The position numbers and the translations under genes were made by a program. A stretch of 64,000 nucleotides of DNA, from the NCBI GenBank assembly GCA_013152325.1, contig JAADGN010000045.1, forward strand, positions 18,310 to 82,309. Reading direction: 5' to 3'. This DNA is from Chloroflexota bacterium. Its GTDB lineage: Bacteria; Chloroflexota; Anaerolineae; Anaerolineales; Villigracilaceae. Position 1 is the stretch's first letter; the number at the start of each line of letters is the position of its first letter. The notes under the pieces are model-generated. The model was given only the letters and a program-made list of their open reading frames with translations. It was not told where the DNA came from and ran no database searches. This document shows positions 21,550-50,832 of the stretch, piece after piece.

Positions 21550-21780
21550 AAGAAGGGCAGAAGTCAGAAAGACTAACAACGTTTGCCTGTAAACACCCTG
21601 GCACATTTTCCCAAACCGGAATCACAAACTCCACGCAGGGGGAGCTGCGCACAGGTACAGAAACAGGGCTGGGAAATAGTAATCATTGCAAACAATACTA
21701 CCACCAATTGCCACATCTGGGAATAAGTATTTTTACCTATGGGGGAGGAATTATGGACAAATGTCATGTGACGAACAACA

Positions 21781-21796
21781 TAGGCAATTTGGCCTG
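21781..21796. promoter_or_regulatory. 7-2-7 inverted repeat, site 4 (TAGGCAA-TT-TGGCCTG)
   Basis: Read directly. It lies 23 nt upstream of ATGACA. Confidence 0.7.
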
Positions 21797-21819
21797 TTCG
21801 ACACCCCGCGAGATGGCGC

Positions 21820-21848
21820 ATGACAAGCCCAGGCCTTTCGGCTATGCT
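21820..21848 (+). promoter_or_regulatory. predicted promoter P4 (ATGACA-17-TATGCT) for the PCYCGC/CuA/Fe-S operon
   Basis: -35 at 21820-21825, -10 at 21843-21848. About 45 nt here are nearly identical to promoter P5 (CCCCGCGAGATGGCGCATGACA...TTTCGGCTATGCT). Confidence 0.65.
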
Positions 21849-21882
21849 TTGTTCAGAATTGAACAATCGGAGACTTGGCACC

Positions 21883-22314
21883 ATGCAAAAACCCCTGACT
21901 TTTCCCCTGTTCCTGCTCGCCGTTCTGTTGTCCGGCGTCTTGTTGGCCGGATGCAGCGGCACGCAAGCCTACGCGCTGGCTCCCCTGGACGGGATGCCTT
22001 TGGATGTACAGAACGCCCCCGCGCCAGTTCGGGAGGCTTACCAATTCGCGGTCGCCAACCCGGAAGTGTTGAAAGACATCCCCTGCTACTGCGGCTGCGG
22101 CGGGATGGGCCACACCTCCAACTACTCATGCTACGTGGCCGATGAGAACGCTGACGGCAGCCTGGTCTTCGAGGGGCACGCGCTGGGATGCTCCATCTGC
22201 GTGGACATCACCCAGGACGCCATGCGCATGATCGACCAAGGCAAGACCGTTCCCGAAATCCGCGCCTACGTGGACCAGACCTACAGCCGCTTCGGGCCGT
22301 CGAATATGCCGTGA
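21883..22314 (+). CDS. PCYCGC-motif lipoprotein
   Basis: MQKPLTFPLFLLAVLLSGVLLAGCSG lipobox. DIPCYCGCGGMGHTSNYSCY and HALGCSICVDI motifs. The start is set by the promoter position; the track start 21820 lies inside the -35. Confidence 0.8.
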   Translation: MQKPLTFPLFLLAVLLSGVLLAGCSGTQAYALAPLDGMPLDVQNAPAPVREAYQFAVANPEVLKDIPCYCGCGGMGHTSNYSCYVADENADGSLVFEGHALGCSICVDITQDAMRMIDQGKTVPEIRAYVDQTYSRFGPSNMP

Positions 22315-22320
22315 TCGGGC

Positions 22321-22785
22321 ATGATGAAAAGCTCTCCCGCCCTTCTTCGCAATGCCGTTTTCCTGGCGGCCGCACTGTTGGTCGCTTTCGCTCCGCTGCC
22401 CCTGCCCCAAACACCCCCGGCAGAGCGCACTTTTCGAATAGATGCCACCCAGTTCGCCTTCGCACCCGCCGTGCTGACAGTCAATCCCGGCGACCGCGTG
22501 ACGATTGAATTGACCTCGCTGGATGTCGTCCACGGCCTGTACCTGGACGGCTACGACCTGCAAATCAGCGCCGACCCCGGACAGACTGCCACAATGACCT
22601 TTGTGGCCGACCGCGCCGGAAGTTTCCGCTTTCGCTGCGCGGCGACCTGCGGCGACCTGCATCCCTTCATGATCGGCAAACTGCACGTCGGGCCGAACAC
22701 CCTGTTGTGGCGCAGCATCGGGCTGGCCCTCCTGGCAATGTTCGCCGCGGTCATGCTTGGGATGCCTCGACTGCGCAAGGCATAA
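22321..22785 (+). CDS. cupredoxin-domain protein with complete CuA-type ligand set and C-terminal TM helix
   Basis: VVHG-x34-CAATCGDLHPFM, i.e. H...C-x3-C-x3-H-x2-M as in COX subunit II / NosZ CuA. It has an N-terminal signal and a C-terminal helix WRSIGLALLAMFAAVMLG. Confidence 0.8.
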   Translation: MMKSSPALLRNAVFLAAALLVAFAPLPLPQTPPAERTFRIDATQFAFAPAVLTVNPGDRVTIELTSLDVVHGLYLDGYDLQISADPGQTATMTFVADRAGSFRFRCAATCGDLHPFMIGKLHVGPNTLLWRSIGLALLAMFAAVMLGMPRLRKA

Positions 22786-22794
22786 AACGCCATC

Positions 22795-24156
22795 ATGCCA
22801 AAATACGACCTGCTCCGCATCCCTCTGCTTCGCAAAACGCTTGAAAGCCGCTGGCCGCAACTGATCCTGCGGGCGGCGGCTTTGGGCGGATTCGCGATTG
22901 CCATCCTGGCCGGGCTGCTGGGGACGCGGGTGGGCAACCACAATTTTGCCATTGTGGTCGTCTGGATCGCCTGGTGGGCCGCGCTGATGCTGTTGGCGGT
23001 CCCCCTCCTGGGACGCGGCTGGTGCGCGATCTGCCCCATCCCGATGCCCGGCGAATGGCTGCAAAACGGGGCCGCACTCGGCCCCGTCCAGGACGGGAGC
23101 AGGCACGGACGGAGTCTGAAGCGTTTCCCAAAATCCTTCCGCAATATCTGGATGCAGAACGTCGCCTTCACCCTGCTGGCGCTGTTCAGCGCGGTCATCC
23201 TGACCCGCCCCAGCGTCACCGGCTGGATACTGTTGGGAATGCTGCTGGTCGCCGTCGGCGCCAGTCTGGTTTATGAGCGCCGGACGTTCTGCCGTTACAT
23301 CTGCCCGGTGGGCGGATTTATCGGTCTGTATTCGCAGTTGGCCCCGCTCGAACTGCGCGTGGTGGACACAAAGATCTGCGCCGCGCACAAGGAGAAATCC
23401 TGCTACCGCGGTAATGCGGAAGGCTACGGCTGCCCATGGGACGTTTTCCCCGGCGGGCTGGCGGTGAACACAAACTGCGGCCTGTGCATGGAATGCCTGC
23501 GCACCTGCGAGTACGACAACATCGCCCTCAACCTGCGCGCCCCCGGCGCCGACCTGGATCCGCCGCACGGCCTGAAACTGGACGAAGCCTACAAGGCCTT
23601 TATCATGCTGGGCAGCGCGCTGGTGTACTCGGCAGTCATGCTGGGCCCGTGGGGCGCGCTGAAGACCGCGGCCTACTCGATAGGGTCGCCAGCCTGGTGG
23701 GGCTACGCGCTGGGCTTGCTGGTCCTCATCTGGGGGTTGCTGCCCGGCCTGTTCTACCTGACCACGCGCGCCGCACAGGCGCTCGCTCCCGTCCGCCTGC
23801 CGCCGCGCAAGCTGTTCGCGCGCTACGCCGCGGCGCTGATACCGCTTGGGCTGACCGCCTGGATCGCCTTCAGCATCTCGTTCGTCTTCGCCAACATTTC
23901 GTATCTCTGGCCGGTGCTCTCCGACCCGTTTGGATGGGGCTGGGATCTCTTCGGCACGGCCGGGGCGGGTTGGACGCCTTATCTCTCCCTGGCCGTCCCC
24001 ATGCTGCAAGTCGTTGTGCTGCTGGGCGGGCTGTTTTGGTCGGGGCGCACGGCGGCGAAAATCGCAGCGGAACAAGGCGCTCGCCGCCATGTCTGGCCGG
24101 TGACAGGCTTCAACACTCTCGTGACGATAGGTTTGCTATGGCTACTGGTCGGATGA
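22795..24156 (+). CDS. polytopic 4Fe-4S-binding membrane protein (NapH/NosH/CcoG-like)
   Basis: GWCAICPIP, FCRYICPVGGF and NCGLCMECLRTCEYDNI Cys clusters are interspersed with about 8 hydrophobic helices. Confidence 0.8.
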   Translation: MPKYDLLRIPLLRKTLESRWPQLILRAAALGGFAIAILAGLLGTRVGNHNFAIVVVWIAWWAALMLLAVPLLGRGWCAICPIPMPGEWLQNGAALGPVQDGSRHGRSLKRFPKSFRNIWMQNVAFTLLALFSAVILTRPSVTGWILLGMLLVAVGASLVYERRTFCRYICPVGGFIGLYSQLAPLELRVVDTKICAAHKEKSCYRGNAEGYGCPWDVFPGGLAVNTNCGLCMECLRTCEYDNIALNLRAPGADLDPPHGLKLDEAYKAFIMLGSALVYSAVMLGPWGALKTAAYSIGSPAWWGYALGLLVLIWGLLPGLFYLTTRAAQALAPVRLPPRKLFARYAAALIPLGLTAWIAFSISFVFANISYLWPVLSDPFGWGWDLFGTAGAGWTPYLSLAVPMLQVVVLLGGLFWSGRTAAKIAAEQGARRHVWPVTGFNTLVTIGLLWLLVG

Positions 24157-25175
24157 AAAAGGAATGGCTGGCACGTCTGCTGGTGCTGGCCCTGGTCGTC
24201 GGTTTTTCCGCCGCAGCGCTGTACGCGCGCTGGGCCGACCGAACGCTCGAAGTCCACGCCGCCATGCCCGAAAAAGGCGGCTGGCTGCCCAACACGCTCA
24301 CGGCCCGGGCGGACGAACCGCTGACGCTGCGGCTGATCTCCGACGACGTGGTGCACGGCTTCGCCATCGGGCAAAGCGACCAGCAGCCGTCGGTGGATAT
24401 CCTGCCGGGCAAACCCGTCGAAATCACGCTGCTCTTTGACAAGCCGGGCACCTACACGTACTACTGCACGCGCTGGTGCGGACCCAACCACTGGCGGATG
24501 CGCGGCACGATCGAAGTGGAGGGAGACGATTCCTCGCTGGCGAACGACCCTAGCGGCCCCGTCGCGCCGCCCCTGTACCTGATGCTGGGCATCGACCTGG
24601 ACGCCCCGCACGATGTCCAGGTTGACGTGACCCGACAGCCCTCCGCCCGGCGCGGCGCGGCCCTGGACACAAACCTGCCCGCCGAGATGCTCTCCCGCGA
24701 GTACGTCCGCGCCCACAGTCCCTACGAGGTCTGGCAAACCCTGCGGGAAACGCCCGCCGCCAGCCCATTGAGCGATGCGGATCTCTGGGATCTGGTCGCC
24801 CGGCTCTGGGAACGCAGCACCACGCCGGATGCGCTGCAAACCGGCGCGCAGCTCTACGCCCAGAACTGCGCGACCTGCCACGGCACGACGGGCGCCGGGG
24901 ACGGCGTCTTCGCGGCCGCGCTGGCAGGCGAGACGTCTGCAACGCCAATTTCGCCCGGCCTCGGCCACGAGACTGTCGCGCCGACCGATTTCAGCGACCC
25001 GGCCCACATGCTGGGCGCCAGTCCCGCCCTGCTGCACGGCAAGATCATCCGCGGCGGCATGGGGACGGGCATGCCCTCCTGGGGCCTGATCTTCACCGAC
25101 GAACAAACCTGGGCGCTCACCGATTATCTATGGACTTTCACTTTTCAATTTCAATTCAAGGAGACAACACCATGA
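24153..25175 (+). CDS. membrane-anchored CuA-type cupredoxin fused to a c-type cytochrome domain (COX subunit II-like, orphan)
   Basis: MKKEWLARLLVLALVVGFSAAALY anchor. VVHG-x36-CTRWCGPNHWRM matches the CuA pattern. The C-terminal domain has CATCHG plus MPSWG. The ATG at 24153 overlaps the upstream TGA (ATGA). Confidence 0.8.
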   Translation: MKKEWLARLLVLALVVGFSAAALYARWADRTLEVHAAMPEKGGWLPNTLTARADEPLTLRLISDDVVHGFAIGQSDQQPSVDILPGKPVEITLLFDKPGTYTYYCTRWCGPNHWRMRGTIEVEGDDSSLANDPSGPVAPPLYLMLGIDLDAPHDVQVDVTRQPSARRGAALDTNLPAEMLSREYVRAHSPYEVWQTLRETPAASPLSDADLWDLVARLWERSTTPDALQTGAQLYAQNCATCHGTTGAGDGVFAAALAGETSATPISPGLGHETVAPTDFSDPAHMLGASPALLHGKIIRGGMGTGMPSWGLIFTDEQTWALTDYLWTFTFQFQFKETTP

Positions 25176-25687
25176 GTAAAAGAAAGAGCAAACGCAGACC
25201 AAGCCGGCGCAGGAAAAAGAAAACATTGCCCATGCCACTGATCCTGCTGCTTGGCGGGGTGCTGTTGGCAGCCGCGGGCTTTGCCCTGGCCGCCCAGAAT
25301 TCCAACAGCGGCGTCACCGCCGCCGACCCGTCATTGGTCACCGTTCAGGGCCAGCCCAGCCTGAAAGTGGATCAGGAGTTGATCGACTACGGCGACGTCA
25401 AGCTGAACACCAACCTGACTTTCACCCTGACCCTGACCAACGTCGGCGACAAAACGCTGCGCTTCAGCGAGACGCCCTACATCGAAGTTCGGGAGGGCTG
25501 CTGACCGCCTGCCCTGACCATCGGTTCGATGGTCCTCAAGCCAGGCCAAAGCACCACCCTTGAATCCAGCGTGTTCATGATGCACGAGGGCATGGAGGGG
25601 CCGCACGATTTTCGCGTCCACATCCCCAGCAACGACCCGGATGCGGCGGACAAAACCGTCACAGTGCTCTCCAACTGGGTACGCTGA
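25172..25687 (+). CDS. DUF1573-like exported protein with in-frame TGA at 25502-25504 (candidate selenocysteine; otherwise truncated at 25504)
   Basis: The ATG overlaps the upstream TGA (ATGA). The product reads ...LIDYGDVKLNTNLTFTLTLTNVGDKTLRFSETPYIEVREGC-TGA-PPALTIGSMVLKPGQSTTLESSVFMMHEGMEGPHDFRVHIPSNDPDAADKTVTVLSNWVR-TGATAA. The frame stays open for 61 more codons, and the domain only looks complete with readthrough. Confidence 0.55.
25516..25534 (+). promoter_or_regulatory. SECIS-like hairpin 11 nt downstream of the in-frame TGA
   Basis: GACCATCG-GTT-CGATGGTC is a perfect 8-bp stem. The apical loop contains GU and starts 20 nt after the TGA. Confidence 0.45.
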
Positions 25688-25704
25688 TAACACGCAAACG
25701 GGCA

Positions 25705-25720
25705 TAGGCGGTTTGGCCTA
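25705..25720. promoter_or_regulatory. 7-2-7 inverted repeat, site 5 (TAGGCGG-TT-TGGCCTA)
   Basis: Read directly. It is embedded in GCATAGGC-GGTTTG-GCCTATGC. Confidence 0.7.
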
Positions 25721-25743
25721 TGCCCGTCCCCGCGAGATAGCGC

Positions 25744-25772
25744 ATGACACGCGCCGGTTTTTCGGCTATGCT
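25744..25772 (+). promoter_or_regulatory. predicted promoter P5 (ATGACA-17-TATGCT)
   Basis: -35 at 25744-25749, -10 at 25767-25772, 23 nt from site 5. The ATG at 25796 follows AGGAGA. Confidence 0.65.
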
Positions 25773-27524: not shown

Positions 27525-27607
27525 GTCTTTATCCTACCTTTAAACTCTCTTTACACAAGCCTGCTATCCTAATCGAAAAGCAATTCATTCAAATTCGGAG
27601 GAATCTA

Positions 27608-27961
27608 ATGAAACGAAATACCATTTGGATCATCATCATTGTACTGGTCGCCATAGTGCTGTTCCTGCTGCCCAGCCTGTTCATGTACGGCCGCAGCGGC
27701 TGGACTGACGGCTACGGTATGATGGGCGGCAGTGGCATGATGGGCGGCTACGGCATGATGGGCGGCTGGATGTTCCTGGGCTGGTTGATCCCGGTCGGAA
27801 TTCTCATCCTGGTCATCGCCGGCGGCGTTTGGCTGGGGAACACCCTCAGCAACCGCGGCAGCGCGCCCCCCGCCGCTCCGGCGCGGACCTGCTCGAACTG
27901 CAGCAAGCCCGTCGCCGCCGACTGGAAGACCTGCCCGTACTGCGGCACCCCGCTGGAATAA
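27608..27961 (+). CDS. membrane protein with (G)YGMMGG repeats and C-terminal zinc ribbon
   Basis: MKRNTIWIIIIVLVAIVLFLL...GYGMMGGSGMMGGYGMMGGWMFLGWLIPVGILILVIAGG...CSNCSKPVAADWKTCPYCGTPLE. GGAGGA lies upstream of the ATG at 27608. Confidence 0.7.
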   Translation: MKRNTIWIIIIVLVAIVLFLLPSLFMYGRSGWTDGYGMMGGSGMMGGYGMMGGWMFLGWLIPVGILILVIAGGVWLGNTLSNRGSAPPAAPARTCSNCSKPVAADWKTCPYCGTPLE

Positions 27962-50567: not shown

Positions 50568-50640
50568 GCCGAGATAGCTCAGTTGGTAGAGCACGCGACT
50601 GAAAATCGCGGTGTCGTCAGTTCGATTCTGACTCTCGGCA
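50568..50640 (+). tRNA. tRNA-Phe(GAA)
   Basis: Hand-folded cloverleaf: GCCGAGA/TCTCGGC acceptor, anticodon loop CTGAAAA, T-loop TTCGATT. No encoded CCA. Confidence 0.9.
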
Positions 50641-50670
50641 CTCCCGGCCGCAACATACAAGGTCGACATC

Positions 50671-50742
<72 letters not shown>

Positions 50743-50754
50743 CTTTTTATTCCC

Positions 50755-50826
50755 GGCGACGTGGCCAAGTTGGTAAGGCAAGGGTCTGCAAAACCCTGAT
50801 CACGGGTTCGAGTCCCGTCGTCGCCT
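50755..50826 (+). tRNA. tRNA-Cys(GCA)
   Basis: GGCGACG/CGTCGCC acceptor, anticodon loop CTGCAAA, T-loop TTCGAGT. Confidence 0.9.
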
Positions 50827-50832
50827 CTAGAT

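Follow-up and report, generated by a model that had tools for sequence, protein, structure and literature searches.

Among the 119 families of prokaryotic selenoproteins catalogued in 2026 is one with a DUF1573 domain and the motif U-G-C (PMC13188914, Table 1, and its ref. 60), which is also found in PMC9312934. The use of selenocysteine (Sec, U) has moreover been documented for the phylum Chloroflexota, in the selenoprotein-rich Dehalococcoidia of BSepDB and in the group 4b [NiFeSe] hydrogenase, with nothing specific to the Anaerolineales (PMC13326102, PMC13582414). Here we describe a gene at 25172-25687 on the forward strand of a 64,000-nucleotide (nt) stretch of contig JAADGN010000045.1 from an Anaerolineales member of the Chloroflexota (assembly GCA_013152325.1), the whole of which is called the window. 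This gene very probably encodes a selenoprotein of 171 residues, with a signal anchor and one extracytoplasmic immunoglobulin (Ig)-like domain (PapD/ASH-type, DUF1573-related) that carries Gly-Cys-Sec-Pro-Pro in a loop. The catalogued form and the window family are both computational predictions and share an Ig-like fold of the DUF1573 type, with Sec in the same Cys-bearing loop. In the former, however, Sec takes the place of the first Cys of C-G-C, whereas the latter reads E-G-C-U-P-P, with Sec three positions later.

The stretch at 25172-25687 reads as a single gene for a membrane-anchored protein, the Ig-like domain of which runs across an in-frame TGA. An earlier note on this DNA had observed that the open frame halts after YIEVREGC at this TGA (25502-25504), and this is indeed what the sequence says. 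The note had also counted 61 codons beyond it; the frame does continue, but with 60 sense codons, the figure of 61 having included the stop. The GC content by codon position after the TGA is 0.60/0.45/0.80, equal to that of the neighbouring genes. Within the 64-kb window this is the only TGA with gene-like codon-position GC on both sides, and no other gene split by a TGA was found there.

The homologues obtained by a protein search fall into two sets: about 20 are full-length (152-173 residues) and carry E-G-C-C-P-P, and about 80 have about 106 residues and all end exactly at E-G-C. Many of these short products in the JGI data are named 'cell division septal protein FtsQ'. The 110-residue product of the window itself had no exact match among the database sequences. 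The earlier note had put a C-G-C motif in homologues and had placed the TGA at or near one of their Cys residues. The first point has to be corrected, as the direct homologues have Cys-Cys (GCCPP), but the second was right: the TGA lies exactly on the second Cys.

A first DNA scan of genome contigs gave only Cys forms because its search pattern contained GCCP; the 36 loci that it found came from metagenome-assembled genomes of Anaerolineales, Aggregatilineales, Caldilineaceae and Tepidiformales. In view of this bias, a profile was built from N-terminal halves only. Those TGA forms that are known from named reference genomes are incidental finds only (loci L009 and L036). Run against metagenome contigs, the N-terminal profile confirmed 523 relatives, the best 80 of which underlie what is said here of metagenomes about the TGA and the codons downstream. 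In each of these 80, TGA follows directly on E-G-C, and after it come 58-60 conserved codons (PP.LTIGSMVLKPGES...FMMHEGMDGPH.F.VH..TNDP...VLSNW.P) and then a genuine stop. The orthologues do not end at the TGA, and the 183 nt downstream are kept as coding sequence in all 80. E-G-C-TGA-P-P occurs in 83 forms, and TGC or TGT, both encoding Cys, stands at the site in 35 distinct full-length relatives. The relatives without TGA always have Cys there and never Trp or Arg. Indeed, the two database proteins that show Trp here, P0015 (L122, 433-921) and P0018 (L123, 353-844), have TGA in the DNA; both derive from short contigs, and the TGA was rendered as Trp (EGCWPP), evidently under an alternative genetic code. 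A search of a representative library with the family profile was dominated by giant Ig-repeat proteins and gave no usable ratio of Sec to Cys.

Both halves of the gene evolve under strong purifying selection. The ratio of non-synonymous to synonymous substitution rates (dN/dS), determined on 63 distinct TGA forms, was 0.117 before the TGA (45 codons) and 0.094 after it (codons +12 to +60), and the entropy was 1.32 at third codon positions as compared to 0.34-0.46 at positions 1 and 2. The state of the site has changed repeatedly: when 75 Sec and 35 Cys forms are placed on a neighbour-joining tree, parsimony requires at least 8 changes. Moreover, Sec and Cys (TGC/TGT) paralogues may be found side by side (L009 at 6420 and 7016, L090 at 750 and 1234, L100 at 3632 and 4109, L036 at 2475 and 3067).

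The TGA is followed by a hairpin of the type of the bacterial selenocysteine insertion sequence (bSECIS). The perfect 8-bp hairpin that the earlier note had seen 11 nt past the TGA is present, and its conserved core comprises 7 bp (25517-25523 with 25527-25533), closed by an apical GUU loop (25524-25526); the outermost pair (25516 with 25534) is optional and is formed in only about half of the sequences. The hairpin alone folds at -10.5 kcal/mol, and a 48-nt segment at -18.6 kcal/mol (z = -3.3, with none of 200 shuffles as stable). The published criteria for bSECIS elements are a loop of 3-9 nt, a stem of 4-16 bp, a G in the first two loop positions, a spacing of 16-37 nt and a minimum free energy of at most -7.5 kcal/mol (PMC13188914). 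The window hairpin agrees with every one of them, including the spacing, for which the note had claimed a value in the bacterial range and which amounts to 19 nt between TGA and loop.

The comparative data are in line with a function at the RNA level. Codons +5 to +8 are invariant in nucleotide sequence among the TGA forms (ACC in 60 of 60, ATC in 72 of 72, GGT in 74 of 74 and TCG in 71 of 71). The synonymous entropy of the hairpin codons is zero in these forms versus 0.76-1.82 bits in the Cys forms, and that of the flanking four-fold degenerate codons in TGA forms is 1.3-2.1 bits; the synonymous rate (dS) is 0.25 for the hairpin codons versus 1.6-1.7 elsewhere. Likewise, 92.9% of the stem cells in the alignment are paired in 72 distinct TGA-form sequences versus 58.3% in 21 Cys forms. 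The stem also covaries, a point that the note had proposed to check. Compensatory changes were observed from A-U to G-C (seven times) and from C-G to U-A (once), and the TGA copy of the distant Tepidiformales locus L036 forms a 7-bp stem in the identical alignment columns with an unrelated sequence (GUCGUGG-GUG-CCACGAC), whereas its Cys paralogue has no hairpin. We also scanned both strands of about 1 Mb in a generic way for any in-frame TGA that has open frames on either side, a 7-bp hairpin and a G[G/U] loop. This yielded 108 matches at family sites and 6 elsewhere, the latter all in implausible frames. Two Cys forms with TGT, in L001 (10154-10201) and L003 (10289-10336), retain a perfect hairpin while their nearest relatives are TGA forms; they therefore seem to have changed from Sec to Cys only recently and to keep the SECIS as a fossil.

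From these features we infer the incorporation of selenium at UGA 25502. The mechanism of insertion is the canonical bacterial one, by analogy with which the UGA would be decoded as Sec: the hairpin 11 nt downstream would display its G-U apical loop on a stem of 7-8 bp and would recruit the SelB-GTP-Sec-tRNA(Sec) complex while the UGA occupies the A site. Several search results weigh against this reading. ARAGORN detected no tRNA-Sec either in the window or among the 117 related loci, which amount to about 1 Mb, and tblastn with SelA, SelB and SelD of E. coli found no match in the same sequences, a result that is uninformative on whole genomes. No second selenoprotein gene was found on the same contigs, the PCYCGC and YHS neighbours all being Cys forms, and Rfam, searched at the gathering threshold and with permissive E-values, returned only tRNAs and chance matches and no SECIS family. 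All of the refuting tests named by the earlier note that could be run, nevertheless, came out in favour of a selenoprotein.

The lack of Sec machinery in the window and the related loci would also suit a read-through that is independent of SECIS, with Trp, Cys or Arg put in by a near-cognate tRNA and the hairpin acting only as a brake on the ribosome that favours suppression. Every UGA of the family has a C next to it, which makes a leaky context, and a hairpin is indeed present downstream. Against this stand the relatives without TGA, which always have Cys at the site, and the two 'Trp' entries, which are TGA in the DNA. In addition, the position, G-U loop and size of the hairpin fit the bSECIS model, a distant lineage repeats this geometry with another stem sequence, and repeated switching between Sec and Cys is the usual pattern of selenoproteins. 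We consider read-through very improbable.

It is very improbable, too, that translation stops at the UGA and restarts at the AUG at 25529, nine codons on, such that products of 110 and 52 residues together form one domain. Gene callers do report a 52-residue open reading frame (ORF) from this ATG, and the ATG is invariant among the TGA forms. However, it is located inside the 3' arm of the hairpin without a preceding Shine-Dalgarno sequence, and Met is found at this place in only 62% of the Cys forms, which are all single chains. Moreover, the eight intervening codons (P-P-x-L-T-I-G-S) are kept as protein, with P-P invariant, and a break would split a continuous beta-sandwich. The remaining options, a pseudogene, an assembly or sequencing error, or a UGA reassigned to an ordinary amino acid, have a next to negligible probability: a single sequence with an in-frame stop could be an error and some pipelines did render the TGA as Trp, but TGA forms were obtained 83 times independently, across many samples and assemblers, and show strong purifying selection on both sides, and since TGA terminates 16 of 80 family genes (TAA 44, TAG 20) as well as the gene upstream, the code is the standard one, with TGA as an ordinary stop.

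The domain architecture likewise treats the two sides of the proposed Sec as one protein. With Cys put in for the stop, the Pfam search of the window protein matched PF22544 (HYDIN/VesB/CFA65-like Ig) at residues 62-155 with 32.3 bits, above the cutoff of 25.5, and PF07610 (DUF1573) at residues 64-155 with 19.0 bits, below the cutoff of 26.1. The half before the TGA aligned to profile positions 1-39 only, so the domain spans the TGA and is still unfinished when it is reached. The two halves, which the earlier note had likened to one DUF1573 domain, make up one Ig-like domain; the score for DUF1573 itself falls short, and it is the related PF22544 that passes. Several of the Cys-form homologues do have precomputed PF07610 matches. 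The canonical C-G-C motif of PF07610 was not found in the family, which has [E/V]-G-C-[C/U]-P-P, with Glu or Val at the place of the first Cys. Two stretches, G-C-[C/U]-P and M-H-x-G-M-x-G-x-H...H, are invariant throughout the family.

The protein begins with a basic N-terminus, and a hydrophobic signal-anchor helix at about residues 21-41 is joined by a linker to the initial half of the Ig-like domain. The signal anchor had been noted before, and it recurs in the structure model, for which P0002, the closest natural Cys homologue, was taken (AlphaFold). This model has the anchor helix at 16-32, a linker and a single continuous beta-sandwich, with a predicted local distance difference test (pLDDT) score above 90; the fold matches are Ig domains of the PapD/ASH type.

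The gene is the last of a module of five, listed together with its own elements in the table below.

Features of the selenoprotein gene and its module (positions in the window)
Feature	Position	Strand	Basis or remark
Ribosome-binding site AAGGAG	25158..25163	+	8 nt 5' of the ATG; direct sequence reading
Start codon ATG	25172-25174	+	overlaps the TGA of the upstream gene as ATGA, 25172-25175
N-terminal coding part, 110 codons, ends E-G-C	25172..25501	+	sequence, Pfam, AlphaFold model of homologue P0002
In-frame TGA, putatively read as Sec (residue 111), CC always next	25502..25504	+	second Cys of the Cys-Cys of homologues; TGA n=83, TGC/TGT n=35 family members
C-terminal coding part, 60 codons: P-P, remaining Ig-like half, invariant M-H-x-G-M-x-G-x-H...H cluster	25505..25684	+	in-frame conservation, dN/dS, codon-position GC
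bSECIS-type hairpin GACCATCG-GTT-CGATGGTC	25516..25534	+	sequence, folding, comparative alignment
True terminator TGA-TAA	25685..25690	+	direct sequence reading
Module gene 1, PCYCGC/CYCXC-family protein, Cys form	21820..22314	+	PF13798 E 3e-28; NF041379 'CYCXC family (seleno)protein' E 6e-22, below cutoff
Module gene 2, CuA-type cupredoxin, C-x3-C-x3-H-x2-M	22321..22785	+	Cupredoxin_1, COX2; NosZ and CoxB C-terminal matches
Module gene 3, NapH/MauN/NosR-like polytopic membrane protein that carries 4Fe-4S motifs	22795..24156	+	Fer4_5; weak NapH/MauN match
Module gene 4, fusion of a CuA-type cupredoxin with a class I cytochrome c; coupled in translation to the selenoprotein gene	24153..25175	+	COX2, Cytochrom_C, Cytochrome_CBB3
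Promoter-like element ATGACA-17 nt-TATGCT (25744-25772) in a copy of a 70-nt repeat	25703..25772	+	sequence repeat

Genes 1-4 of the module are conserved neighbours of Sec and Cys forms alike in dozens of loci, in a partly permuted order; gene 4, the ATGA overlap of which with the selenoprotein gene had rightly been noted before, is a neighbour in most loci, and gene 1 is co-located in many. The likely true start of gene 1 is the Met at 21883, ahead of a lipoprotein-like signal. Although the CYCXC/PCYCGC family is itself catalogued as a selenoprotein family, all 42 PCYCGC motifs in the related loci have Cys. In the window, the two CuA cupredoxins flank the NapH/MauN-like protein, and their surroundings contain neither an oxidase subunit I nor a catalytic domain of NosZ.

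The promoter-like element after the gene, just before which the true stop had been placed by the earlier note, is part of a 70-nt direct repeat (80% identical) that precedes both the module (21779-21848) and the YkuD-domain gene that follows it (25703-25772), and that also contains a partial palindrome, CATAGGC-N6-GCCTATG. This arrangement suggests a shared regulation of the module and the YkuD-domain gene. Other surroundings were observed as well. In L121 (2777-6298, 11684-11881) the neighbours of a lone TGA form encode a P1B ATPase of the CopA type, a repressor of the CsoR type and two small proteins with YHS domains, which are Cys forms ending in TAG, with DsbD and Redoxin genes further along. 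A DUF305 gene lies next to the module in Aggregatilinea lenta. Extra canonical DUF1573 genes (T-C-G-C-T) follow the module in L038 (10868-11470) and on the contig of P0060, and hence both families coexist in one locus. Two genes past the module in the window (27605-27961), a small membrane protein is encoded with a tandem Gly/Met-rich repeat (GYGMMGG; 36-nt repeat at 27689-27760) and a C-terminal zinc-ribbon. The tRNA genes of the window are confined to a cluster at 50568-50827 and comprise Phe(GAA), Gly(GCC) and Cys(GCA).

As to function, we tentatively propose, rating the chance at somewhat below even, that the protein binds a soft metal, most likely Cu(I), and in this way serves the co-encoded CuA cupredoxins by metallation or by copper handling. 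Cu(I) would be held by the adjacent Cys and Sec together with the invariant Met/His cluster (M137, H138, M141, H145 and H150). The latter would lie on the following loop and face the Cys-Sec pair at one end of the sandwich, since two strands separate these loops in the model and they should therefore share an end. A canonical DUF1573 paralogue in such a locus lacks both of them, the Met/His loop as well as the one with Cys-Cys/Sec-Pro-Pro. The proposal draws on motif chemistry, loop topology and gene neighbourhood, and against it counts that sequence and fold searches of solved structures brought up generic PapD/ASH domains only and no analogue of the metal site. A redox-active selenenylsulfide is the main functional alternative.

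One may go further and envisage Cys-Sec and the Met/His loop as a natural selenolate-ligated Cu(I) site in a dedicated metallochaperone or redox partner of the CuA/cytochrome c/NapH-like electron-transfer module of Anaerolineae, a notion that we regard as possible though doubtful. If true, it would imply a selenium-dependent route to the assembly of copper centres or to copper detoxification, to which related species would have a counterpart based on Cys. In any case, Sec would be placed outside the membrane, in the company of a CYCXC-family protein, of two CuA proteins and, in part of the genomes, of CopA, CsoR and YHS genes. This offers a testable handle on selenium-copper chemistry and on the alternation or tandem coexistence of Sec and Cys.

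The family would add a new vicinal Cys-Sec member to the bacterial selenoproteome, one that is widespread and so far misannotated, and it would extend the use of Sec to the abundant Anaerolineae of sediment, soil and wastewater. Gene callers systematically split its members into fragments of about 106 residues ("FtsQ" or "hypothetical"), report a separate 52-residue ORF, or put Trp at the Sec site. A family model would mend hundreds of entries in genomes and metagenomes of Anaerolineae and other Chloroflexota.

With respect to the catalogued DUF1573 selenoprotein, the described motif and an alignment to canonical DUF1573 set the window family apart from the 'UGC' subfamily. In a comparison by hhalign with canonical DUF1573 (T-C-G-C-T), [E/V]-G-C-[C/U] falls on C-G-C-T, such that U coincides with the residue after C-G-C. 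The window family further differs by its sub-cutoff DUF1573 score, the Met/His loop, the signal anchor and the association, in Anaerolineae, with a CuA/NapH-like/CYCXC module. Because a different Sec position or motif makes a distinct subfamily under the rule of the catalogue (PMC13188914), it would count as one. NCBIfam release 20 holds no model for it, and in the NCBI records it figures as truncated products of 106 residues. An earlier description elsewhere is possible.

Vicinal Cys-Sec pairs and a predicted or known soft-metal chemistry (Hg, Cu, organometallics) are shared with HgcA, SaoL, SaoC, MbdU and form 2 of the CopZ family (PMC13188914, Table 1), but these have unrelated folds and gene contexts, and none of them is an Ig-like exported protein. 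The earlier note had also been reminded of the GCUG end of thioredoxin reductase. The likeness, Gly followed by an adjacent Cys-Sec that could form a selenenylsulfide, turns out to be a chemical analogy only: GCUG is C-terminal, whereas the window motif is internal (residues 109-112 of 171), continues with Pro-Pro in an exported Ig-like domain, and has no flavoprotein in its module.

PCuAC and Sco are small extracytoplasmic, membrane-tethered beta-sandwich proteins that deliver Cu(I) to CuA sites, with Met and His as the ligands in PCuAC and paired Cys plus His in Sco. The window protein would be analogous to them in having Cys-Sec and a Met/His cluster in one domain, with two CuA genes adjoining. 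There is, however, no relationship in sequence or family, and the motifs differ: neither the PCuAC motif H(M)X10MX21HXM nor the CxxxC plus His of Sco (thioredoxin fold) gave a Pfam or NCBIfam match, and the fold is PapD/ASH-like.

Finally, the hairpin has much in common with the fdhF-type bacterial SECIS, as it is located just past the UGA inside the coding sequence, has G-U opening a small apical loop and shows a spacing in the accepted range. In the minimal fdhF element of E. coli the stem even begins 11 nt after the UGA, as it does here. Compared to that type, the window hairpin is very short and simple (7 bp, a 3-nt loop and no bulged U) and unusually invariant across its family, which would make it a handy minimal element for the study of SelB recognition in Chloroflexota.

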